26,841 nucleotides of DNA, taken from the IMG/VR virus record IMGVR_UViG_2802429248_000008, positions 1 through 26,841 of that record. One strand, given 5' to 3'. Source of the DNA: a virus. Its lineage: Duplodnaviria; Heunggongvirae; Uroviricota; Caudoviricetes. This document shows, piece by piece, positions 1 through 14,854 of this stretch. A program made the position numbers and the translations under genes. Under the pieces are notes generated by a model that worked only from the letters and a program-made list of their open reading frames with translations, searched no databases and was not told the DNA's origin. The first letter of the stretch is position 1. The number at the start of each line of letters is the position of its first letter.

Positions 1-60
1 GATATCCGTTCAGCTTCAGAATAATGCTGTTGATTTTACGGTGACTCAGCGGGAGTGAAA

Positions 61-83
61 AGAAAAAAGGCCGCAGAGCGGCC
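61..83 (-). terminator. Rho-independent terminator closing the int-distal cassette
   Basis: GGCCGC (69-74) / GCGGCC (78-83) stem with a 3-nt loop. On the minus strand it is followed by TTTTTT (68-63). It lies about 110 nt downstream of the stop at 193. Confidence 0.65.
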
Positions 84-192
84 ATAATTACATTCAAAAA
101 TCAATAAGTTACACAATTATCAATAGCTTACAGACACACAAAAACACAGCCAACCACAGCAAGTAACAGGGATGTGGTCACTTTGTGGATCA

Positions 193-756
193 TCAGCCAA
201 CAAATTTAGCAACAAAATACGCGACCGCCGCCGTGAAAATGGTTGTGCACACTGGCACAATAATGCCACTCCAACGCCACTTCGTATTATCATCAACCTT
301 GTCAAACCGCCGATTCATCTCATCCATAATCTTGTCAAAGCGTTTATCCATCGCTTCGGTAAGCTCACCCTTCAGGCTGTTAATGTCTGATTTGAGCTGC
401 TCTTTCAGGTTAGCTGTATCAGATTTAAGCTCACCTTTCAGATTCGCAATATCGCATTTAAGCTCACCTTTCAGATTCGCAATATCGCATTCAAGATCAC
501 CTTTCAGATGTGCTATGTCTGCTTTGAGTTCACCTTTCACCTCACCAACATCGGCTTTAGTTGAGAGGTTTGTAGTGCGTTCAGCAAGTGTCGCAAGGTC
601 GTTTCTTGTTAGCGATAAATCACCTTCGAGCCGCTCAATTCGCCTTTCAAGTTTATCTGACATTCCGCCTCCATTATCACCGCCTCCCTCACCGAAAGAG
701 TTGCCAATGTCCTCACGAATAAGGGTTATGCCATGCTCACTTTTAGCATACGCCAC
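193..756 (-). CDS. Tail-anchored coiled-coil membrane protein (resembles the DUF1640 / XhlA architecture)
   Basis: 187-aa ORF with a GTG start abutting the upstream stop. An alternative ATG at 663 has a GGAGG Shine-Dalgarno (SD) 5 nt upstream. It contains 11-aa repeats such as DIANLKGELKC and a C-terminal hydrophobic helix (IIVPVCTTIFTAAVAYFVAKFV). Confidence 0.75.
   Translation of the reverse strand: MAYAKSEHGITLIREDIGNSFGEGGGDNGGGMSDKLERRIERLEGDLSLTRNDLATLAERTTNLSTKADVGEVKGELKADIAHLKGDLECDIANLKGELKCDIANLKGELKSDTANLKEQLKSDINSLKGELTEAMDKRFDKIMDEMNRRFDKVDDNTKWRWSGIIVPVCTTIFTAAVAYFVAKFVG
350..549. repeat. About six tandem 33-bp repeats inside the coiled-coil CDS
   Basis: Units at 385-417, 418-450, 451-483, 484-516 and 517-549. 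The two central units (atcRSatttaagctcacctttcagattcgcaat) are nearly identical. The period of 33 bp equals 11 codons, so the frame is preserved. Confidence 0.9.
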
Positions 757-1155
757 TCAGATTCCCTCCCAAACTATATATCCTTTGTCTCTTGCCCAAC
801 AAACAACTGTGTGGGCTGTATATGTGGATGTGAAGCCGCAATAAGAACATGACACTTCATACCGAGTATTGTAGATGTTAATGGGCTCGTTCTCCTTGTG
901 TATGGGAGTGACATATTCCCAATCATTCGAATCATCATAATCATCAAGCTCAGGGTCTGTGCCGTGAACAACCGTATGTGGAATAAACAAATCTGGGCGC
1001 CCACACGAGAGACAAGAGGTTCTGGCATCTCTATCTTTGAGGAATTGAATAAATAATTTGGGCGAAATCTGTTGCAGAACCTGCAAATGCCCACGTTCAT
1101 TATCATTAAGAGACCTGTCTGCATATGGAAAATCATCAAATTTAAGAGGCTTCAT
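757..1155 (-). CDS. Hypothetical zinc-ribbon protein (two CxxC pairs)
   Basis: ORF 757-1170. ATG 1155 has a GGAG 9 nt upstream; alternative starts are at 1164 and 1170. It carries CLSC and CSYC motifs about 60 aa apart. It overlaps the int stop (1142-1144), and its own stop abuts the next start. Confidence 0.7.
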   Translation of the reverse strand: MKPLKFDDFPYADRSLNDNERGHLQVLQQISPKLFIQFLKDRDARTSCLSCGRPDLFIPHTVVHGTDPELDDYDDSNDWEYVTPIHKENEPINIYNTRYEVSCSYCGFTSTYTAHTVVCWARDKGYIVWEGI

Positions 1156-2134
1156 ATAAGGCATCTCCAAGGGGATTAAATCTCACCGCATCCTGCAAGT
1201 AATCCGGCGCAAGATGGGCATAAATCATCGTTGTCTGAATCTTTGCGTGCCCCAGAATTTTCTGGAGCGTCAGAATATTGCCGCCGTTCATCATGAAATG
1301 ACTGGCGAAGGTGTGGCGCAGCGCATGAACAGCCTGGCCGTCGGGAACATCAGATGCGACCGTTTTGATGACATCGCGAACCAATGGATAATCCAGCGTC
1401 GGAAACACCAGTTTCCCGCCCCGTATTTTGATCTTTTCAAACAGGCTTTCAGAAATAGGAACGGTACGGTTTTTGCTGTTCTTCGTTTTTGAAAAAGTGA
1501 TTCGACAATGAAGAACACGGCGCTGCTCCAGTGCCGCTACCTCGCCCCATCGCGCCCCGGTCGACAGAAGGATTTCGACAGCCAGCCGTTCATCGGGATT
1601 TTCAGCCAGTGCATCCAGCAACTGAACACATTCAGACTTACTCAGATATCCCATTTCGCGCTCGTTAACCTTCATTCCTTTAAGGCCTTGAACGGGGTTA
1701 TCGTTAAGAAAATGGCCGGATGAGATGAGTGCGGTAAACATCGCGCTTAACGCCCCAATCTCTCGATTTATGGTGCTGGGCTGTATCCCCTGCTCTATCC
1801 TGGACACACGTAGCTCGGTGAGCATCGTTGTATTAAGTTTATGCACGCACGGGTCATCCATTGCCTCACTCAAGCGCAGCAATTTAAGGCGCGTGTTATG
1901 CCCTGACTTCATTAGCTGGCCGTGGTATTTCCACCACAAGTCAATAAGCACTGACAGCGGACGGCGATCAATGGAGTTTCCTTTCCACTCATTGTTATGC
2001 TGTTGCGCCAGCACCCACCGCTCATATAAAACTGCATCCGATTTCGTTTTAAATTTTTTACGAATGCGTTTGCCTTTACGCCCCTCCGGGCGCATGTCAA
2101 GAAGATACCCTCCCGGAATTGATTTTATGCTCAT
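1142..2134 (-). CDS. int: Tyrosine recombinase / P2-type phage integrase
   Basis: The start MSIKSIPGGYLLDMRPEGRKGKRIRKKF resembles the P2 Int N-terminus. The C-terminus has HALRHTFASHF and IYAHL catalytic motifs. The upstream part of the tracked ORF (to 2284) is probably untranslated. Confidence 0.93.
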   Translation of the reverse strand: MSIKSIPGGYLLDMRPEGRKGKRIRKKFKTKSDAVLYERWVLAQQHNNEWKGNSIDRRPLSVLIDLWWKYHGQLMKSGHNTRLKLLRLSEAMDDPCVHKLNTTMLTELRVSRIEQGIQPSTINREIGALSAMFTALISSGHFLNDNPVQGLKGMKVNEREMGYLSKSECVQLLDALAENPDERLAVEILLSTGARWGEVAALEQRRVLHCRITFSKTKNSKNRTVPISESLFEKIKIRGGKLVFPTLDYPLVRDVIKTVASDVPDGQAVHALRHTFASHFMMNGGNILTLQKILGHAKIQTTMIYAHLAPDYLQDAVRFNPLGDALYEAS

Positions 2135-2183
2135 TCGTGAAACCCCAGCGTTACAAGACCACCATGCCCCCAGCGCTCCATGA

Positions 2184-2492
2184 TTAGCCGGGCTGTGTGC
2201 CAGTCTTGCGGGGTTTTTGAGAAGGCGATGTGCTTTTTGGCCCATCAGGGGAGAGAGACGGACTGATCTGCCCAGCAGCCTCATTTGTTTTTCCCGTCAT
2301 AAGCCAATTCATGTACTTAAAAAAGCGAGGGTGATTAACAATCTTGATAAGCACTTCGCCCCCTATGTTTTCAATCCGCCCCGTTTCATAACGACGCAAA
2401 GTGCCGATAGGCACATCAATCAGGCCGCAAAATTCTTCGCGCGTTAAATCCTCTGATTCACGAATCACTCTAATTTTTTCACCGATAAGCAT
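2184..2492 (-). CDS. Immunity repressor, XRE-type HTH (P2 C-like)
   Basis: 102 aa from ATG 2492 (MLIGEKIRVIRESEDLTREEF...GTLRRYETG). It is similar in size to P2 C and lies directly upstream of int, divergent from the cox-like gene. Confidence 0.85.
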   Translation of the reverse strand: MLIGEKIRVIRESEDLTREEFCGLIDVPIGTLRRYETGRIENIGGEVLIKIVNHPRFFKYMNWLMTGKTNEAAGQISPSLSPDGPKSTSPSQKPRKTGTQPG

Positions 2493-2588
2493 TGACAGTG
2501 TTCCTATAAGTACACTAAGCTTGCGCACAAGGTGTACTTATAAGTACACCAAGTCACAAACAACCACAGATAGCGCAGGTTATCACAC
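2493..2588. promoter_or_regulatory. Divergent lysis/lysogeny switch region with TAAGTACAC operator half-sites
   Basis: Perfect 18-bp palindrome GTGTACTTATAAGTACAC at 2532-2549, plus a third copy TATAAGTACAC at 2505-2515. A TTGACA hexamer lies at 2492-2497. The region sits between the divergent repressor and cox-like genes. Confidence 0.7.
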
Positions 2589-2867
2589 ATGGCAAAAGTC
2601 CTGAACACACACGAACAGGCAGACTTTGAGCGTTTAGCAGCGTTCTATCCCTACCGCGATGAGCATGGGTTACCAGTACTTGAAGAAAGCCTGAAAGATT
2701 ACGCAAAGCGTACCAACCAAGCTGTTAACACAGTGAAAAGACAGGCTGACAGAGGTTCAATTCCCATCAACCAGGATGAAAAGAACTCAAGACGCACAGT
2801 AAATCTCTTCGCTCTTTTCCTGAAAACAATCAGGAGCGCAGAAAAATACGTGCAGATGACAAAATAA
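2589..2867 (+). CDS. cox: Cox-like excisionase / lytic switch regulator
   Basis: 92 aa and first gene of the rightward operon. The segment DYAKRTNQAVNTVKRQADRGSIPIN resembles the P2 Cox HTH (FAKLIGKSTGAVRRMIDKGKLPVI). Confidence 0.7.
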   Translation: MAKVLNTHEQADFERLAAFYPYRDEHGLPVLEESLKDYAKRTNQAVNTVKRQADRGSIPINQDEKNSRRTVNLFALFLKTIRSAEKYVQMTK

Positions 2868-5151: not shown

Positions 5152-5355
5152 ATGAACAAAAAGACCTGGTTTCGCGCATACATGTGGGCGCTGGTATGCG
5201 TCCTCGTTTCTCTCATTCTGTATGCAGGACTACTCCCCCGAATGATTTCATCAGACAGCTCCTTCCTGGTATTGCTGGGCATTTTCATTGCCATGCTGTA
5301 CCCGGCAGGCGTTGTTCGCCTTTTCAGTAAGTACATCAAGGAAATCAAACAATGA
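5152..5355 (+). CDS. Small two-helix membrane protein, partner of the SPFH gene
   Basis: 67 aa with two hydrophobic stretches (WALVCVLVSLILYAGLL and FLVLLGIFIAMLYPAGVV). ATGA overlap with the next gene. Confidence 0.65.
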   Translation: MNKKTWFRAYMWALVCVLVSLILYAGLLPRMISSDSSFLVLLGIFIAMLYPAGVVRLFSKYIKEIKQ

Positions 5356-6182
5356 AGAAATTCAAACTCTTTCAGATTCTCCCGCTTTTTGCCGCCATCC
5401 TGCTGGTTGGCTGCGATCGCGTTGAGCCAGGTAATGTGGGCATCAAAGTCAACAAGCTGGGCGACGACAAAGGCGTTGGCGAAGTGGTTGGCGTTGGCCG
5501 CTACTGGACTGGCTGGAATACAGAGGTTTACATCTTCCCGACCTTCAAACAAATGAAGACCTACGATGAGCCGTTCAGCTTCCAGATGAGTGACGGCACA
5601 ACCATCGGCTATCACATCGGCGTGGCTTACAAGGTTGATCCATCCAAAGTTACCACAGTGTTTCAGACCTACCGCAAAGGCGTGGATGACATTACCGACA
5701 CTGACCTGCGCCAGAAGATCGCCGATGCACTCAACCGACTGGCCAGCAAAATGACCACCGATAAGTTTATCGACGGCGGTAAGTCTGAACTGCTGGATTC
5801 AGCACTTAAAGATATTCAGGAAGAGATGACCCCCATCGGCATTCAGGTCATGAGCCTCTCTTATGTCGGCAAACCGGAATATCCGCCAACCGTTATCGAC
5901 AGCATTAACGCCAAAGTCACGGCAAACCAGAAAACCCTGCAACGCGAACAGGAAGTCAAGCAACGCGAAGCTGAAGCCAACATGCTGCGCGCAGAAGCTG
6001 CCGGACAGGCCGATGCCATTCGCACAAAAGCCCAGGCTGAAGCCGACGCCATTCGTTTACGCGGCGAAGCTCTGCGCCAGAATCCCGGCGTCATGGAGCT
6101 GGAAGCGATTAACAAATGGAACGGCACGCTGCCGCAATACATGACCAGTAACACCGCTGTTCCGTTCGTTCCCGTGAAGTAA
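5352..6182 (+). CDS. SPFH / band-7 (prohibitin-like) lipoprotein
   Basis: 276 aa. Signal peptide with lipobox LLVGC. SPFH-type core (GNVGIKVNKLG...YIFPTF...) followed by an Ala/Glu/Arg-rich coiled coil (QREAEANMLRAEAAGQADAIRTKAQAEADAIRLRGEAL). Confidence 0.8.
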   Translation: MKKFKLFQILPLFAAILLVGCDRVEPGNVGIKVNKLGDDKGVGEVVGVGRYWTGWNTEVYIFPTFKQMKTYDEPFSFQMSDGTTIGYHIGVAYKVDPSKVTTVFQTYRKGVDDITDTDLRQKIADALNRLASKMTTDKFIDGGKSELLDSALKDIQEEMTPIGIQVMSLSYVGKPEYPPTVIDSINAKVTANQKTLQREQEVKQREAEANMLRAEAAGQADAIRTKAQAEADAIRLRGEALRQNPGVMELEAINKWNGTLPQYMTSNTAVPFVPVK

Positions 6183-7970: not shown

Positions 7971-10793
7971 ATGACGACAGAGTACATCAGGGACTGGCAA
8001 CAACCGCGCCACGCAGTAGGGCGTGAAGGAACGGGGATCCCCGCACCTGAATCCGCGCTTTCCTCCTGGCTGGATGCCTACCGGGCAGAGAACGAGCGCC
8101 GCCAGGAAAAGGCTGATGCGGTGTTCTCCGCCACGCCACTGGGCAACCTGATTAATAAAAGCCTGGACGCACAGGAAAAACAGGACAAAACCATCACTCT
8201 GGCAGGAGAAGCCAGAAGACAGGCACGCGGCGCGGTGGATGAAGCCATGGCCTCGCTGCGCCTGCTGCCGTCCTATCTGCGCGATCCGCTTATTCGCCAC
8301 CTCTCCTTCCTGCGCAAAAAACAGGAAGCCGATCGCCGGAAAGGCAAAAAGAGCTGGCAGGCAGAACGCTATGCACGCGGAACCCTGCGCAAGATATTCG
8401 ATCGCATTAACCGTGCCGACAGTCGCTGGCTGACACCGGGTTATCGCTCCCTTGCCGGACGCGAACGCCTGGACGATTTGCTTTACCTGCCGCAGCTCAA
8501 CAAACACCAGATACAGACGCTGGCCACCATGACGGCGGCGATGTTCAGCAGCACCTTCGAAAAACTCTGCGATGGCTTTGGCGCGACTGATGGTGAGCTG
8601 ACCATGGAGGTGGCACTGAAGGCGTATCAGATGCTGGCCCGCATGGCGTTACACCTGCACACCGTGCCGCCGCATTACGAAGCGCTGACAACAGACAAAG
8701 ACCGGAGGAACGAACCGGACACGGAGCTGCTGCCGGGCGCAATCCTTCGTCTGACCTGTGCGGAATGGTGGAAACGCAAACTGTGGCTGTTACGTTGCGA
8801 GTGGCGGGAAGAACAACTCCGTGCCGCCTGTCTGGTTTCCAGAAAAACATCGCCCTATCTGAGCCAGGACGCGTTAAGCGAGTTTCGCGCACAGCGCGAG
8901 AAAACACGCGATTTTCTGAAAAGTTTCATGCTGGAAAACGAAGACGGGTTCACGATTGATCTCGAGACAGTGTATTACGCGGGAGTAAGTAACCCGGTTC
9001 ACCGTAAGGCAGAAATGATGGCCACCATGAAGGGGCTGGAACTTCTGGCCGAAGCCCGTGGCGACAAAGCGGTGTTTCTGACTGTCACCTGCCCGTCAAA
9101 ATACCACGCCACAACAGAGAACGGTCATCCGAACCCCAGATGGAACGGGGCCACCATGCGCGACTCCAGCGATTACCTAGTTAACACGTTTTTTGCGGCG
9201 GTCCGCAAAAAACTGAACCGCGACGGTCTTCGCTGGTATGGCATCCGCACGGTGGAGCCTCACCATGACGGCACTGTGCACTGGCATATGATGGTCTTTG
9301 CACATCCGGAAGAAATCGACAGCATCGTGGCCATCACCCGCGATATTGCCATTCAGGAAGACCGCCACGAGCTGGGCAATGATATTACTCCGCGCTTTAA
9401 GGTGGAGTATGTCGACGGCTCAAAAGGCACACCGACCAGCTATATCGCCACCTACATCGGAAAAAACCTGGACAGCCGCGCCGTGGATGGCATCGACCCG
9501 AAAACGGGCAAGCCACGCGTTGACCACGAAACCGGAAAATCAATGGCCGAGAGCGTGGAGCGCGCCATCGGCTGGGCGCGCCTTCACCGCGTCCGCCAGT
9601 TCCAGTTCTTTGGCATCCCCTCCCGTCAGGTGTGGCGTGAACTGCGCCGCCTTGCCAGCCAGATGGCACGCAACCCGGAAGGCCCGCAACGGCTGAAGGA
9701 TGACGCAATGGATGCGGTACTCGCTGCCGCTGATGCCGGGTGTTTTGCCTCCTACATTGAAAAACAGGGTGGCGTACTTGTTCCACGCAAGGACTACCTG
9801 ATTCGCACCGCCTACGACCTCGCAGATGAGCTGAACGATTACGGCGAACAGGGCGTACAGATTTACGGGATCTGGTCACCACTCATCGGGGAATCCTCCC
9901 GTGTGTGCACGCACCCGGATAACTGGAAGCTGGTAAGACGTAAACCGGAACAGGAAGGTAGCGCCCACGAAAATGGTTTTGACCTTCAGGGCGGCCCTGC
10001 CGCCCCTTGGACCCGTGGCAATAACTGTCCCCGTGTACAGGAAACGGACAACAACGGGACAGAACAGCCGGAAGAACGGCCAGCACCGTGGCCGCAGCTT
10101 CCTGACGGCATTGAAGTGAACGAATGGATGCGCTCACTGAAACGGCACGAACGCCGGGCGCTGATGCGTTCGCTTCGTGACAAACAGGCAAAAAACAGCA
10201 GTGATGAAATGCAGAGCTGGACACAGAGCCGCAAACAGCAGCGGCCTTTGCCTGATAACCACGAATTACTCGCTAGAGAATGGCGGGAGTCTGCTGAATC
10301 TCTCGGCCTGCATATCGGTGAACAACAAATGCAGCACCTGTTACGGGGCGGCAGTCTGTACGTTGACGGCAGCATCATTGCACCGCAGGGATTTGAAATT
10401 GTACGCAAACCGGATACCCGCCCGGACAGCCGAATCACGCAGCTCTGGCAGCGCCTGAGCCGTAATCACGGTGTAAGCAGCACGGAGATCCGCCATAACC
10501 CGGTCGCCAGCTATCTGGCACAGCTGGGGGCATCAGACCCTGAAGCCGCCGCACGCCTGGCATCCACACTTCAGCAGGACCAGAACACCATGAAAACACC
10601 CGTTACCGTGCTTTCTGACATGCTGCGCGCCATCCGCGACGCAGAGCACGCACAGAGAATCAGTGAAACCACTGAACGCGCCCACCGCAAAGCAGACCTG
10701 CTGCGGGGTGGCCTGACCAGTGGAAACAAAAAACAGACAGAAACGGGACTCACGAATCCCGTAAATGAGCAAAAAACGCGCAGCGATATATGA
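7971..10793 (+). CDS. A: Rolling-circle replication initiator endonuclease (P2 gpA family), C-terminally extended
   Basis: 940 aa. HUH motif HHDGTVHWHMMVF at 9261-9299. Paired catalytic tyrosines YIATYIGKN at 9441-9467. Positioned as P2 A. Confidence 0.9.
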   Translation: MTTEYIRDWQQPRHAVGREGTGIPAPESALSSWLDAYRAENERRQEKADAVFSATPLGNLINKSLDAQEKQDKTITLAGEARRQARGAVDEAMASLRLLPSYLRDPLIRHLSFLRKKQEADRRKGKKSWQAERYARGTLRKIFDRINRADSRWLTPGYRSLAGRERLDDLLYLPQLNKHQIQTLATMTAAMFSSTFEKLCDGFGATDGELTMEVALKAYQMLARMALHLHTVPPHYEALTTDKDRRNEPDTELLPGAILRLTCAEWWKRKLWLLRCEWREEQLRAACLVSRKTSPYLSQDALSEFRAQREKTRDFLKSFMLENEDGFTIDLETVYYAGVSNPVHRKAEMMATMKGLELLAEARGDKAVFLTVTCPSKYHATTENGHPNPRWNGATMRDSSDYLVNTFFAAVRKKLNRDGLRWYGIRTVEPHHDGTVHWHMMVFAHPEEIDSIVAITRDIAIQEDRHELGNDITPRFKVEYVDGSKGTPTSYIATYIGKNLDSRAVDGIDPKTGKPRVDHETGKSMAESVERAIGWARLHRVRQFQFFGIPSRQVWRELRRLASQMARNPEGPQRLKDDAMDAVLAAADAGCFASYIEKQGGVLVPRKDYLIRTAYDLADELNDYGEQGVQIYGIWSPLIGESSRVCTHPDNWKLVRRKPEQEGSAHENGFDLQGGPAAPWTRGNNCPRVQETDNNGTEQPEERPAPWPQLPDGIEVNEWMRSLKRHERRALMRSLRDKQAKNSSDEMQSWTQSRKQQRPLPDNHELLAREWRESAESLGLHIGEQQMQHLLRGGSLYVDGSIIAPQGFEIVRKPDTRPDSRITQLWQRLSRNHGVSSTEIRHNPVASYLAQLGASDPEAAARLASTLQQDQNTMKTPVTVLSDMLRAIRDAEHAQRISETTERAHRKADLLRGGLTSGNKKQTETGLTNPVNEQKTRSDI

Positions 10794-10869: not shown

Positions 10870-11829
10870 ATGAAAATTTGTATCGACGACGGCTCCACCA
10901 ACATCAAGCTGGCATGGACTGAGAACAGCGAACGCCGCAACGCCATCAGCCCGAACAGCTTCAAGTCGGAATGGTCTGCGCCGTTCGGTGGCTCGCAGCC
11001 TGCGAACTACATGCTTGATGGCGTGCGCTATGGTTTTGATCCGGTCAGCGATCGCTTTGTCCAGACGACCGACACGCAATACCAGTACAGCGATGTGAAT
11101 GTAATCGCCATTCACCACGCGCTGGTCAAATCAGGCATCACACCACAGGAGGTGGATGTGGTTGTCACCCTGCCACTGAGCGAGTATTTCGACACAAACG
11201 CACAGCCGGACATGGCCAACATCAACCGCAAAAAAGCGAACGTTATGCGCCCGGTGGAGTACCAGAACGGTGAGGCATTCACTATCCGTAACGTGCGGGT
11301 TATGCCTGAATCCATTCCGGCTGGCTTTAAAGCACTGGCTGACATGAGTCCGTTTGAATCCCTGCTGATTGTGGATTTAGGCGGAACCACGCTGGATGTG
11401 GCAAAGGTTCAGGGACAACTGGCAGGTATCAGCCAGGTGTTTTGCGATCCACACGTAGGCGTTTCCCTGATGGCCGATGCCGTACTGTCGGTGATGGCCA
11501 CTAACGGTATGCGTACCAGTCACCACATCGCCAATACCATTATCGAACATCGCCATGATGAAGCCTGGCTGCGCCAGCACATCCACAATGACGCGCATTA
11601 CAACAGCCTGATGGCGGTTATTCGTGAAAAGGAAGAAACACTGAAACAACGCGTGATCCGCGCGCTGGCGGGTTTTTCGGGTTACGGGCGGGTGATGGTT
11701 GTCGGTGGAGGGGCGGAGATTGTGGCACCCGCTATCCGCGAAGCCTGCGGAGTTAATGCGACTTTCATCGCGGACGGGGTGCCACAGTTTGCTCTGGTTA
11801 ATGGGCTGTACGCAATGGACAAGGAGTAA
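10870..11829 (+). CDS. parM: ParM/StbA actin-like plasmid segregation ATPase
   Basis: 319 aa, aligning along its whole length with my recollection of R1 ParM. Shared segments include IDDGSTNIKL, YSDVNV-A-HHAL, VMPESIPAG, DLGGTTLD, GGGAE and LVNG-Y. Confidence 0.9.
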   Translation: MKICIDDGSTNIKLAWTENSERRNAISPNSFKSEWSAPFGGSQPANYMLDGVRYGFDPVSDRFVQTTDTQYQYSDVNVIAIHHALVKSGITPQEVDVVVTLPLSEYFDTNAQPDMANINRKKANVMRPVEYQNGEAFTIRNVRVMPESIPAGFKALADMSPFESLLIVDLGGTTLDVAKVQGQLAGISQVFCDPHVGVSLMADAVLSVMATNGMRTSHHIANTIIEHRHDEAWLRQHIHNDAHYNSLMAVIREKEETLKQRVIRALAGFSGYGRVMVVGGGAEIVAPAIREACGVNATFIADGVPQFALVNGLYAMDKE

Positions 11830-11833
11830 ACCA

Positions 11834-12145
11834 ATGACGACACCAACCAGACGGATAAGTTTCTATCTGAAGCCCGCCGCCGTCAAGAACGAAGGCGAAG
11901 CATGCGCCTGGCTGGACAGCCTTACACCAGAAGCCCGCAAAAGCGGCCAACGCGTGGCTTTTCTGGCCGGGCTGGCACTTCTGAAAATGAATCCGGCAGA
12001 GGCTTACCGACTGGCTGCATGGGCTGACGATGAGGCGTTATCGGTGACACAAACCAGGACAGAACGCCCCGTGTCACAGCCAGTACCAACCGCACAGATA
12101 ACCAGTCAGATGGCAGGGAATATCCGGGCATTATTTCCTGAATGA
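11834..12145 (+). CDS. parR: ParR-like centromere-binding adaptor
   Basis: 103 aa from ATG 11834, with an AAGGAG SD 7 nt upstream. The N-terminal ribbon-helix-helix-like segment RRISFYLKP...ACAWLDSL...RVAFLAGLAL parallels R1 ParR (RTIAFKLNP...LDSIP...AALTAGLAL). It lies immediately downstream of parM. Confidence 0.7.
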   Translation: MTTPTRRISFYLKPAAVKNEGEACAWLDSLTPEARKSGQRVAFLAGLALLKMNPAEAYRLAAWADDEALSVTQTRTERPVSQPVPTAQITSQMAGNIRALFPE

Positions 12146-12205
12146 CGAATTTGACGGCTTTTAATTTTATCGGGGTGCACTGTCGCCCCGCACGAGGAAA
12201 ACACG

Positions 12206-12730
12206 ATGAAAAAATACGAATACATGCTAATGAAAGAAGCACTGCGGGCTGGTCTGGCTCCCTGTCCTGTATCCGTAGAAGCTGTTGTTGGGAACACGAT
12301 TTTCCGAACGCTGCGAAATCGCGTATCCGTGAAGATGATTCACCAACCACCCAAATCTACCAGCATGATCTATCTGCCGCTGCCCGAGGCTATCAAACTT
12401 ATGCGTTCGCTGAAATTTGCGATTTGGATGCAGACACAGCTCAACAAAGCGGTGCAAAACACCTTCGTTAAGAAACTGATGCCGGAGCTTGCTGCCAGAT
12501 GTGCAAAATGTACCAGACCAGCACTTCAATTTGATCTGTCATTGATTCAACAAGCTACGGAGGCAGAACTGTACCGCCTGTCACCTCTCCATGATGCTCA
12601 CACGGAAGCCTCAGAAATGTTCCGGCTCATGTTTCAATTTAATTTTGCCGTTCGACGCACACGCGTTCAGGTCAATCGCATGATGCAGGCGCAGGAAGAG
12701 CTGACGCAACACAAAGGAGGCAACCAGTGA
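12206..12730 (+). CDS. Hypothetical protein, accessory hotspot gene 1
   Basis: 174-aa ORF with a GAGGA SD. No family recognised. Visibly more AT-rich than the late genes. Confidence 0.65.
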   Translation: MKKYEYMLMKEALRAGLAPCPVSVEAVVGNTIFRTLRNRVSVKMIHQPPKSTSMIYLPLPEAIKLMRSLKFAIWMQTQLNKAVQNTFVKKLMPELAARCAKCTRPALQFDLSLIQQATEAELYRLSPLHDAHTEASEMFRLMFQFNFAVRRTRVQVNRMMQAQEELTQHKGGNQ

Positions 12731-13317
12731 GCAAGATTGACTATCAGGCATTACGCGAACGTTATTCACCTGCGCCAGTACCGAAATGCCCTATTTGCGG
12801 CGAGGAAATGTCAATTCAGCGAATATCTGGAGCACAGGTTGTTTATGCCTGCTCCGGTTATGGTGATGATGGAGATTTCAAAATTGGTCGAACTCTTGCC
12901 GACGAACATTATGAAAAATCACGCGTAACAGTGTTGGATGTCGGGGATCCTGAAGTATTGGCGCTACTTGATTGGCTGGAAACTAAAGACAACCGAATCG
13001 CTGAACTGGAAAAAATCGCCACTGACTATGCACTTAAATTCCAGAAAGCACAGGACGCATTAAAGTATGCCGCTTTGCTGCATAGCCGGACGGCGCAACA
13101 AACCAATAATTTTGCAGTATCGCTTCCGGACATAAGCGAATATTTCATTAATGACGTATTTCAGCCCTTGCGATACGAGCGGGATGTTGAAAGAGCCATC
13201 ATAAAGGCTGGCGGAAAAGCATTGTGGCAGGAGAAACACGAGGACAGAACGCATCAGTCCTGCGATGTAAATTGTGGATGGTTTAGCCCACTGACGACAG
13301 ATAAAAATAACACCTGA
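12727..13317 (+). CDS. Hypothetical protein, accessory hotspot gene 2 (zinc-ribbon-like N-terminus plus Ea22-like coiled coil)
   Basis: 196 aa. The GTG start forms a GTGA overlap with gene 1, with an AAGGAGG SD 8 nt upstream. Motifs: CPICGEEM...YACSG and VLALLDWLETKDNRIAELEK. Confidence 0.65.
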   Translation: MSKIDYQALRERYSPAPVPKCPICGEEMSIQRISGAQVVYACSGYGDDGDFKIGRTLADEHYEKSRVTVLDVGDPEVLALLDWLETKDNRIAELEKIATDYALKFQKAQDALKYAALLHSRTAQQTNNFAVSLPDISEYFINDVFQPLRYERDVERAIIKAGGKALWQEKHEDRTHQSCDVNCGWFSPLTTDKNNT

Positions 13318-13329
13318 TCCCCCTCAAAC

Positions 13330-13355
13330 CAGGGCGATAATCGCGCATCGCCCTG
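13330..13355 (+). terminator. Stem-loop after the accessory cassette (possible terminator; no U tract)
   Basis: CAGGGCGAT (13330-13338) / ATCGCCCTG (13347-13355) with an 8-nt loop. Confidence 0.3.
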
Positions 13356-13479
13356 CTGCACAATAGCGCACAAATTTGCACAATTTTTTTGAAAGACTTT
13401 TTACCCTTCCGGCCCGCATGGTGGCTGGATCCGTCAAGGATCCGTGCGTGCACAAAAAAACGCGTTTTTTCTGCGCGCA

Positions 13480-13498
13480 GGTGACGGGGGAACAGCCC
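13480..13498. other. Candidate 19-nt cohesive-end core
   Basis: GGTGACGGGGGAACAGCCC matches 13 of 19 positions of the P2 cos sequence as I recall it (GGCGAGGCGGGGAAAGCAC). It is immediately preceded by two perfect palindromes. Confidence 0.3.
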
Positions 13499-13807
13499 GC
13501 GTTTCAGGGGGTAAATAGCATTCCCTGAACGATGTCGCAGAGATACAACAGAATGGCTGTATTTCTCACGCTGAGCGTGAAAAAGACGTGAGGGCTTTTG
13601 ATTTGATGGGGTGAAAGGTAAGGCCGTCAAAATCGCACTGAGACGGCGAGAACATGCAGCCAACGCGGTGGGATTGCGTAAGAGTCTGGCTGTCGATGAT
13701 GGCAATAAGCAGGAAAGCGTCGTGAAATTATCTGATTGATACAGGAGCTGGAGAGTCGGGGCATAAATTTTTTATGCCCCGGCGAAGCAGCAGACAAGCG
13801 AAGCGCG

Positions 13808-14854
13808 TCAGGATGTGGGCTGGGTGTCCAGCAGTGCATAAGGGTTAAAGCGGATCACCTCTTCGCCAAGCCAGTCATTGATGTGCTTCATGGCCTCCAT
13901 GACGGGCATCAGCTCGTTAATTGCGTAAACCCGCGCGGCCTTCTCCACATCACCAAACGCACTTTTTTCGCCCGGCATCGCCCCCATCAGTTGCGGCGGA
14001 ACGCGGTGCGCAGCCAGCACATCATCACGGGATGCCGCCTTGACATTCATGAACTCATCCTTTGCGGTGATCTGCTGGAACGGCAAAATTTGCACCCCCT
14101 CTTTGCCCCCGTTGGGCGCATGAATGAGCACGTTTTTAAACGCACCACCACCACGTGCACCCTGTAACGTTTCTTTCAGGGAGTCCATGCTTTCGCGGTT
14201 TACCTGCGCTGCACCGATGTAGATGATGCACCCGGCGTGGGATCCGTTGTCGTAATACAGTTTTCTGAACATGTCCGCCGAATGAGACAGGCTGGCCGAG
14301 AGTAATGCGCCGAGATATTCCGGCATGCCGTAAATTTCCTGGTTAATGTCCGGATTCATCAGGTGGCACACTTTGCCAGGGCGAAACTGGAACGCGTCCT
14401 TGCCATCCTGCACATACCACCATGATTCAAGATCGCTTCCGCGTCGCATGTATTTCGCCAGTGCGTGCCGTAATTTAAGCGGTTCGCCGAGCATATTGCT
14501 TCGAAGCTCAAGGAATGCGTTACCGAACACAAACCAGTCCAGCGCCAGCGCCGAGAAATCCTGCCGGGAAAGCAGCGGGTGCGGAATATAGCAACCGAGC
14601 AATACATTGCGCTTAAAGTAAAGCGCAGACTGATGCCAGGACGTTTGCCGGGCAGCTCTTGCCAGACCGTACCAGTCCACCGGGGTTTCATACCACCGCC
14701 CGTTATCAGCACAGTACATATTGTCCAGCAGGTCATGCCCGGTCAGGCGATAAGGACCATCAAATGTGAATGCACTGAGCGATGATTCTTTCCTGAGCGC
14801 ATCAGCGAGATCAATGCGTGAACTCATGCGCACTTTTTTATTTTTTCTGCTCAT
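13808..14854 (-). CDS. Q: Portal protein (P2 gpQ family)
   Basis: 348 aa, first gene left of cos. One-nucleotide overlap (TGATG) with the stop of the terminase gene. Size and position match P2 Q. Confidence 0.88.
   Translation of the reverse strand: MSRKNKKVRMSSRIDLADALRKESSLSAFTFDGPYRLTGHDLLDNMYCADNGRWYETPVDWYGLARAARQTSWHQSALYFKRNVLLGCYIPHPLLSRQDFSALALDWFVFGNAFLELRSNMLGEPLKLRHALAKYMRRGSDLESWWYVQDGKDAFQFRPGKVCHLMNPDINQEIYGMPEYLGALLSASLSHSADMFRKLYYDNGSHAGCIIYIGAAQVNRESMDSLKETLQGARGGGAFKNVLIHAPNGGKEGVQILPFQQITAKDEFMNVKAASRDDVLAAHRVPPQLMGAMPGEKSAFGDVEKAARVYAINELMPVMEAMKHINDWLGEEVIRFNPYALLDTQPTS

Follow-up and report, generated by a model that had tools for sequence, protein, structure and literature searches.

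Two genes separate int from the attachment site of a P2-like prophage

The DNA analysed here, a 26,841-nt stretch of a tailed-phage genome (IMG/VR record IMGVR_UViG_2802429248_000008; hereafter the window, by which we mean the whole stretch), begins with two minus-strand genes that lie downstream of a P2-type integrase gene. We refer to these two genes, which together form the cargo described below, as the ZnR gene, for the zinc-ribbon protein that it is predicted to encode, and the CC-TM gene, for a predicted coiled-coil protein with a transmembrane helix. The int gene (1142-2134, minus strand) encodes a 330-residue tyrosine integrase with Pfam Int_N and Phage_integrase domains and is annotated as such in RefSeq relatives. 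The ZnR gene (757-1155, minus strand; 132 amino acids) begins inside the end of int, its start overlapping the int stop by 14 nt, and is followed by the CC-TM gene (193-756, minus strand), which encodes a long form of 187 amino acids from a GTG at 756 and a form of 156 amino acids from a probable second start, an ATG at 663. A first-pass annotation of this DNA had placed two further genes after int on the same strand, and both open reading frames (ORFs) are indeed present. The first ORF extends over 757-1170 and offers three candidate starts, TTG 1170, ATG 1164 and ATG 1155, which overlap the int stop at 1142-1144 by 29, 23 and 14 nt, respectively, in agreement with the 14-29 nt given in that annotation. 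ATG 1155 is the likely start, because GGAG stands 9 nt upstream of it and because the eight closest homologue clusters are exactly 132 amino acids long (the most distant, 130). The second junction was also described correctly: the GTG of the CC-TM gene directly abuts the TGA of the ZnR gene (TGAGTG), and the two ORFs share a reading frame.

The cargo has a GC content of 43.9% (ZnR gene, 41.9%) and is AT-richer than int (49.3%) and the whole window (53.2%); the earlier estimate of about 40% against 50% or more had the direction right but slightly overstated the gap, which is about 5-10 points. Both ORFs are real genes, because ZnR evolves under purifying selection (dN/dS = 0.30 against an 85%-identical allele) and has a confident AlphaFold2 model, and because the gene pair is kept in homologues down to 20-45% identity. 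In a megablast search of window positions 1-2600 against the phage collection, the int fragment alone found a match.

The cargo lies inside attL, at the terminator of ihfA

That the cargo belongs to the phage and not to host DNA beyond the prophage end had been argued from its overlap with int. The att core, sought through empty sites and related prophages, was found at 59-83, beyond both genes. Almost every complete Escherichia coli genome (5424 of 5426) matches window 3-83 at an empty site, most of the matches ending exactly at 83, and this site is the ihfA-btuC intergenic region. Positions 1-58 align with the same intergenic region and form the B arm of attL, upstream of btuC; the host flank of the window is 86.6% identical to the E. 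coli btuCED-nlpC region, and in contig PTSI01000022.1 (L005; GCA_002965825.1), which is identical to the window, btuC begins just to the left of it. The attL and attR of a 97%-identical prophage in E. coli TUM1880 have in common the 25-mer AAAGAAAAAAGGCCGCAGAGCGGCC, which is window 59-83. The attR of the window's own prophage falls outside the window, and the attR evidence is that of TUM1880 (L004 4930-5030). The core is also present in the empty site (L003) and is thus found at attL, attR and attB, as in a P2-like prophage. The left end of the window is attL of a P2-like prophage inserted at the ihfA terminator, between ihfA and btuC. Because the core lies downstream of both the ZnR and the CC-TM gene, the two are phage DNA; we regard this anatomy of the locus and the phage ownership of the pair as close to certain. 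A 32-kb extrachromosomal P2-like genome of Klebsiella (CP052639) carries int, a ZnR homologue and a small ORF, known by position only, and beyond these the side of the phage with late-control gene D; with that qualification on its second ORF, this layout supports a cargo that travels with the phage.

On the minus strand, the core reads as a hairpin, GGCCGCTCTGCGGCC, followed by TTTTTTCTTT (83-59; terminator scan), which folds at -13.4 kcal/mol (z = -3.4 against shuffles). The good minus-strand terminator noted at 61-83 in the first-pass annotation therefore exists as a hairpin, but a terminator owned by the cargo is ruled out, since the sequence is the att core and, in the host, the intrinsic terminator of ihfA. 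The gene ihfA, whose own terminator is the target of this prophage, encodes a subunit of a host factor needed in P2-type integration. Judged by its sequence, the phage-borne core should restore the ihfA terminator at attR and supply a terminator for the C-int-cargo unit at attL. Just past the core and pointing towards btuC, a sigma-70-like site (TTTTCA, 17 nt, TAAAAT; 61-33, minus strand) may be the btuC promoter. The lysogenic operon would end directly upstream of btuCED, and read-through could affect these B12 uptake genes.

The int side of the core retains the geometry of P2. Two direct repeats, TGTGGTCA and TGTGGATC, lie at 172-191 (plus strand), towards int and 88 bp away from the core; their TGTGG starts are spaced by 11 nt. 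In the annotated P′ arm of P2, TGTGGACA repeats with 11-nt spacing lie 87 bp from the core, and the repeats of the window correspond to them as P2-type Int arm-binding sites. Between arm sites and core lies an AT-rich spacer (84-171), whose equivalent in P2 holds Cox-binding sites according to the P2 annotation; the GC content of 84-192 is 34.9%. The P′ arm of P2 overlaps the 3′ end of int, with no cargo, whereas in the window it abuts the CC-TM stop. The ~950 bp of cargo is inserted precisely between the int stop and an otherwise P2-like attP. The same arm motif abuts the stop of the partner gene at Salmonella and Raoultella loci, and in L009 it comes after a terminator.

ZnR is a predicted zinc-ribbon protein of an unnamed family

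ZnR is acidic (pI 4.9) and matches phrog_4293 (E = 1.6e-29), and profile scans placed it in no Pfam or NCBIfam family. Its family comprises 41 clusters at 90% identity and 278 representatives at 50%, all of ~100-165 amino acids and unnamed. All of 84 family members retain both CxxC pairs (C48/C51 and C103/C106), and the family also has a conserved ITPxxFxxFL helix. The AlphaFold2 model (predicted local distance difference test score, 87; predicted template-modelling score, 0.80) places a beta zinc-ribbon core between two helices at the N-terminus and one at the C-terminus, and the first-pass description of a zinc ribbon with two CxxC pairs agrees with it. Similarities to TFIIS and TFIIB are weak, and a sequence profile search of the PDB with ZnR gave no match. 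We also considered ZnR as a homologue of the Ogr/Delta activators; this was ruled out, as the Ogr_Delta hidden Markov model (HMM) does not match it. On the strength of the model, ZnR is described as a predicted cytoplasmic, acidic zinc-ribbon protein. The NCBI Prokaryotic Genome Annotation Pipeline (PGAP) leaves the gene for the ZnR-A allele, which 14 E. coli genomes carry, unannotated in all but one of the eight records listed; an example in an E. coli RefSeq relative is L001 5722-6120.

CC-TM is a predicted tail-anchored stalk protein of DUF1640-like architecture

The AlphaFold2 model of CC-TM has a disordered segment (1-31), a helix (32-64), a break (65-67), a second helix (68-153) and a transmembrane helix (159-186). 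The C-terminal hydrophobic segment reaches a Kyte-Doolittle 19-residue mean of 2.14 at 165-183 and is followed by about four residues. Since basic residues precede this anchor and so few follow it, CC-TM would be tail-anchored with its stalk in the cytoplasm; the earlier description of a tail-anchored coiled-coil membrane protein is borne out to the extent that both a coiled coil and a C-terminal transmembrane helix are predicted. Neck motifs that form a beta-layer at the start of a stalk consist of an aliphatic residue, A-T-K, a polar residue and D or E (PMC4786415), and CC-TM has such a motif, LSTKAD, at residues 64-69, of which T66, K67 and D69 show little or no variation across sets of 19 and 43 homologues. 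Of the PDB sequences, that of the archaeal family member 6H9L matches CC-TM best. The match of CC-TM to the Pfam CCDC90-like family PF07798 scores 28.1 bits and so lies below the gathering threshold of 33.5; relatives at 79-92% identity carry precomputed PF07798 matches and are named DUF1640/CCDC90 by NCBI. We consider CC-TM best filed as DUF1640-like by architecture and motif, with a sub-threshold HMM score. From N- to C-terminus, it is modelled as a disordered extension, a linker rich in Gly, a helical head, the STKAD neck, a coiled-coil stalk of ~86 residues and the membrane anchor; the stalk is presumably trimeric. PHROG holin and 'hemolysin' families gave faint matches to CC-TM (E = 0.004-0.02), and a Pfam scan gave no match to XhlA (PF10779).

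Part of the stalk is encoded by a 33-bp tandem repeat (402-539; Tandem Repeats Finder, 4.2 copies with 83% matches), which yields 11-residue repeats in the protein. Among CC-TM homologues, which are 112-192 amino acids long in total, the differences in length are whole repeat units, and because the copy number differs among alleles that are otherwise more than 90% identical, the length of the stalk appears to evolve by repeat slippage.

The N-terminal extension suggests two isoforms and a unit of exchange

The reading frame upstream of the internal ATG is open for 28-44 codons, with its start coupled to the ZnR stop, in eight of eight lineages; this extension ends in a Gly/Asp-rich linker, which is followed by a conserved Met. 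In seven of the eight lineages, GGAGG stands 4-7 nt before the internal ATG (window 633-663; L002, L009, L023, L025, L026 and L029), and this internal GGAGG is built from rare GGA Gly codons. Because the extension is open and start-coupled while the internal GGAGG and ATG are conserved, CC-TM is likely to be made as a long and a short isoform. RefSeq/PGAP calls only the short form, starting at the internal ATG; as the sole CC-TM start, this start is ruled out by the same upstream codons.

Between the window and the O157 allele, ZnR is 20% and the extension 21% identical, whereas the rest of CC-TM, the stalk body, is 91% identical. This difference indicates that ZnR and the extension were exchanged as one unit, with a breakpoint at the Gly-rich linker, and the sequence pattern suggests that the extension is a docking peptide for ZnR.

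The pair is a lineage-wide, allelically diversified module

Four divergent alleles, A, B, C and D, occupy the same slot in 14, 23, ~18 and 86 complete E. coli genomes, respectively, so that at least 141 of 5426 (at least 2.6%) carry one of them. Alleles B (O157), C (enterotoxigenic E. coli) and D (strain 165) lie at the same att site as the window; the homology of allele D was established with hhalign (probabilities of 97.9 and 98.4). One prophage of the lineage has an unrelated single gene in the slot instead. Pairs are also found at other sites in P2-like prophages of Salmonella, Serratia, Raoultella and Klebsiella (in CP052639, as noted, with the second ORF by position only), and we found a 45%-identical metagenomic relative and, in another genome, a degraded copy. 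For each ZnR homologue examined, the next gene overlaps or abuts it and encodes a small tail-anchored coiled-coil protein, either DUF1640-like or of a ~100-residue, XhlA-like form. The CC-TM profile scan of genome contigs extends to 3 loci only, the back-translated patterns being saturated.

The pair is not confined to the 3′ side of int. A P2-like prophage of Aeromonas (L016) has it upstream of int, after a repressor-like helix-turn-helix (HTH) gene in the same unit, and it is likewise upstream of int in a metagenomic contig whose host is not known (L029). At both loci (L016 3188-4703; L029 411-2517) a gene for a Flk_N-like protein precedes the pair, and the L029 unit also encodes a VasI-like protein, which suggests a larger accessory block in these lineages. 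In the cultured lambdoid Salmonella phage SPN3UB, the pair corresponds to gp24/gp25 (L023 3453-4122) and lies in a moron-type region beside an arc/ant immI-like region, upstream of the tape-measure gene; SPN3UB thus offers an experimentally tractable phage that carries the pair. Judged from these sequences, the pair is a lineage-wide and allelically diversified module and not a one-off or sporadic cargo.

The pair is probably the distal part of the lysogenic operon

Upstream of int lies a C-type immunity repressor gene (2184-2492, minus strand; Pfam HTH_3/HTH_31; 102 amino acids in the RefSeq form), in the order of P2 C-int, and the C-int unit is divergent, as in P2, from an ORF in the position of cox (2589-2867, plus strand). 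A consensus scan found no promoter-like or terminator-like site on the minus strand between the C-cox region and the att core, and the core is the sole minus-strand terminator-like site of the unit. Because the lysogenic promoter Pc was not detected in the scan, the case for co-transcription rests on synteny with P2; on this analogy, we think it probable that the pair forms the distal part of a Pc-driven lysogenic operon, C-int-ZnR-CC-TM, and is co-transcribed with C and int. From that place in the operon, low-level production of the cargo would be expected in lysogens. The tight coupling to int recurs in Klebsiella, Serratia, Raoultella and Salmonella. In the C/cox intergenic region (2500-2590), two direct repeats of TATAAGTACAC lie ~27 bp apart and resemble P2 O1/O2-type operators for the C repressor; the consensus promoter scan called neither Pc nor Pe.

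The first-pass annotation had recognised in the two genes the signature of a moron. They are accessory phage genes of deviating GC content (43.9% against 53.2%) fused to the int operon, and to that extent the label holds, but they are neither autonomous nor sporadic. A classical moron has its own promoter and terminator; the cargo overlaps int and lacks both, and for this reason it is not a classical autonomous moron.

Relation to known systems

In phage lambda, the cI-rexA-rexB operon places a cytoplasmic and an inner-membrane component downstream of the immunity repressor in the lysogenic transcript, so that both are made only in lysogens. The likeness of the pair to Rex lies in this operon logic and is an analogy only, as family, PADLOC and structure searches gave no relationship in sequence or fold between ZnR or CC-TM and Rex. 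RexB is polytopic, but the only membrane segment of CC-TM is its C-terminal helix, which follows a long stalk; and unlike Rex, the pair follows int as well as C and is not known to confer exclusion.

Like the lysogenic-conversion genes old, tin and Z/fun of P2 and the cargo of the P2/P4 hotspots (Rousset 2022, PMC9122126; NAR 2026, PMC13586616), the pair is accessory cargo at a site of gene turnover. It lies, however, outside the main P2 hotspots (between replication gene A and portal gene Q, and in the tail region), and unlike the cargo of those hotspots, it lacks its own promoter and terminator. Instead of many unrelated systems, the slot mostly contains alleles of one module, and no catalogued system matched.

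With DUF1640/CCDC90B/MCUR1 proteins (PF07798; 6H9L of Kcr-0859), CC-TM shares the order of head, neck, stalk and anchor, the xSTKAD neck, the C-terminal anchor and the 11-residue stalk repeats. Three traits set it apart from the DUF1640 proteins described so far: its N-terminus carries an extra disordered extension with a Gly linker, translation probably also starts internally, and ZnR is its obligate partner. PBSX XhlA (PF10779) and E. coli ElaB, YqjD and YgaM are, like the ~100-residue partner alleles, small proteins in which an N-terminal coiled coil precedes one C-terminal anchor, and two such alleles, from Raoultella, give weak XhlA matches; CC-TM has no significant match to this group and belongs here to a lysogenic operon, as opposed to a lysis cassette or a host stationary-phase regulon. 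The Ogr/Delta activators of P2 and P4 are, like ZnR, small four-cysteine zinc proteins encoded next to attP, but the two are not homologous, their Cys spacing differs, and ZnR is encoded on the int side of attP in the lysogenic operon while Ogr/Delta goes with the late genes. Prophage accessory cargo at a P2 hotspot is thus of a known kind; this module and its design have not been described.

A possible exclusion or abortive-infection device

In P2-like phages, the int-att interval has been reported as a minor defence hotspot that accounts for 3% of the recognised systems (PMC13586616). We propose that a C-int-ZnR-CC-TM transcript would start at Pc and end at the att core/ihfA terminator, and that ZnR would dock on the N-terminal extension of a presumably trimeric CC-TM stalk at the cytoplasmic face of the inner membrane; we give the binding of ZnR to the extension about an even chance. 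The complex would act as a prophage-encoded exclusion or abortive-infection device. Specificity or sensing would reside in its exchangeable part, ZnR plus the extension, and the membrane stalk would stay constant as scaffold or effector; the operon logic would resemble that of lambda cI-rexA-rexB. Such a role is favoured because of the location in a hotspot, the expression expected in lysogens, the allelic swapping of the putative specificity part and the variation in stalk length; four allele types at one site, together with the variable repeat length, fit an arms-race function. The anti-phage role of the pair is nevertheless put forward tentatively, with somewhat less than an even chance, and the statement as a whole, covering the anatomy, the lysogenic operon and a function in exclusion or abortive infection, falls only a little short of one. 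A more specific version, in which P2-like and lambdoid temperate phages share an undescribed two-component system whose presumably trimeric, two-isoform inner-membrane stalk uses its disordered N-terminal tethers to capture the cognate ZnR, exchanges 'ZnR plus tether' as a cassette, tunes the length of its stalk and acts as sensor and effector of exclusion or abortive infection, is doubtful.

Several observations weigh against this proposal. In PADLOC-DB 2.0, ZnR had 0 matches and CC-TM only coiled-coil overlaps (LmuB, ZorA and similar) of at most 23 bits, and a structure search returned no informative neighbour of ZnR. No homology points to a function of the pair. Our literature search found no paper linking DUF1640 to phage defence, and among the papers on DUF1640, XhlA and prophage defence it found no functional study of DUF1640 proteins in phages. 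Pc escaped the consensus promoter scan. With one transmembrane helix per chain and almost no periplasmic tail, CC-TM is not an obvious pore or injection blocker. The linkage of ZnR to the extension may reflect physical adjacency and a recombination-prone tract of Gly codons, and the near-universal presence of the pair in the prophage lineage could mean that it serves the phage's own lysogeny.

This last point leads to a rather unlikely alternative, that the pair is an accessory factor for lysogeny, acting on the level or activity of Int, on the directionality of integration and excision or on the lysis-lysogeny switch, for example through a regulator sequestered at the membrane. Across genera, the pair is always translationally coupled to int or inside the C-int unit, it abuts the P′ arm, and most prophages of this int/att lineage carry it as one of alleles A-D; small zinc-ribbon proteins, moreover, often bind polymerases or nucleic acids, although the TFIIS/TFIIB-like similarities are weak here. 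Yet P2 itself does without the pair, its int running into the P′ arm, one prophage of the same lineage has an unrelated single gene in its place, and in lambdoid SPN3UB the pair is far from int. The acidity of ZnR (pI 4.9) is unlike that of a DNA-binding protein, and ZnR and the extension have diverged to ~20% identity between alleles whose stalk bodies remain 91% identical and whose listed int products are nearly identical.

We consider it unlikely that the pair serves a lysogenic conversion unrelated to phages, in which the stalk would alter the host envelope or physiology, for instance as a scaffold or regulator of an inner-membrane transporter, like MCUR1 for the mitochondrial calcium uniporter MCU, or through ribosome or membrane tethering of the ElaB/YqjD type. 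CC-TM does have the head-neck-stalk-anchor architecture of the DUF1640 proteins CCDC90B and MCUR1, the unit is presumably expressed in the lysogen, and the head of MCUR1 reportedly binds a membrane channel. However, only coiled-coil and neck features link CC-TM to MCUR1 by homology, with a score under the Pfam threshold; no host partner is indicated; and a function of the conflict type is suggested by the allelic swapping of ZnR with the extension and by the fact that several unrelated temperate phages carry the pair.

A toxin-antitoxin or addiction pair, in which CC-TM would be a membrane toxin checked by ZnR and would stabilise the prophage, is quite unlikely. The small bicistronic unit of overlapping genes with a membrane protein as its downstream product would suit it, and a related E. 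coli prophage tolerates such cargo, namely a Hok/Gef gene, at its other end; but neither protein matches a toxin-antitoxin family, ZnR has no HTH or ribbon-helix-helix autoregulatory domain, the unit lacks its own promoter, and CC-TM is mostly a long soluble stalk, unlike toxins of the Hok/TisB type. It is very improbable that the pair assists lysis as an XhlA-like holin partner or a lysis-timing factor: the weak Pfam XhlA matches of the short partner alleles, the faint PHROG holin and 'hemolysin' matches of CC-TM and an architecture like that of PBSX XhlA would fit, but these matches are below any threshold, the XhlA model does not match CC-TM, the pair lies in the lysogenic operon on the strand opposite to the late genes, and the 97%-identical E. 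coli relative has its own holin, endolysin and Rz-like genes in the late block. That the two are host genes outside the prophage, or spurious ORFs, has a negligible probability, for although they lie at the window edge and RefSeq mostly lacks a ZnR annotation in E. coli relatives, att mapping refutes it (the core lies beyond the genes, and the empty site in more than 5000 genomes lacks them), the extrachromosomal CP052639 has a ZnR homologue with a small ORF known by position only, and ZnR combines purifying selection with a confident fold and wide conservation.

Other cargo of the prophage

Elsewhere in the window, a gene of the early region, located after the cox-like gene and before gpA, encodes a 276-residue protein with a Band_7/SPFH domain (5352-6182, plus strand; E = 6e-31); the protein has no PADLOC match, and the gene is absent at this position in the E. 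coli TUM1880 relative. The interval 10870-13705, which separates gpA (7971-10793) from the portal gene (13808-14854, minus strand), is the classical old/tin defence hotspot of P2. It encodes a ParM-type actin-like segregation protein (10870-11829), an Ead/Ea22-like protein (12727-13317) and several ORFs without a family, and no protein of this interval has a PADLOC match. In E. coli TUM1880, a Hok/Gef-family toxin gene lies between ogr and attR (L004 5248-5388), and because of this gene both att-proximal ends of that relative carry cargo; the window ends before the region that would match it.

Implications

P2-like phages can carry cargo between int and attP with the geometry of attP undisturbed, and the att core, the terminator of a host gene, would be reused as the terminator of the operon. 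The two genes define a recurrent, unnamed pair that automated annotation largely misses or assigns a wrong start. If the proposed role in exclusion or abortive infection is correct, the pair would add a new architecture to the repertoire of prophage defence and would provide a first function for bacterial DUF1640/CCDC90 proteins, whose mitochondrial relatives MCUR1 and CCDC90B are poorly understood. If the pair instead tunes lysogeny, it would represent a new regulatory layer of the P2 C-int operon.

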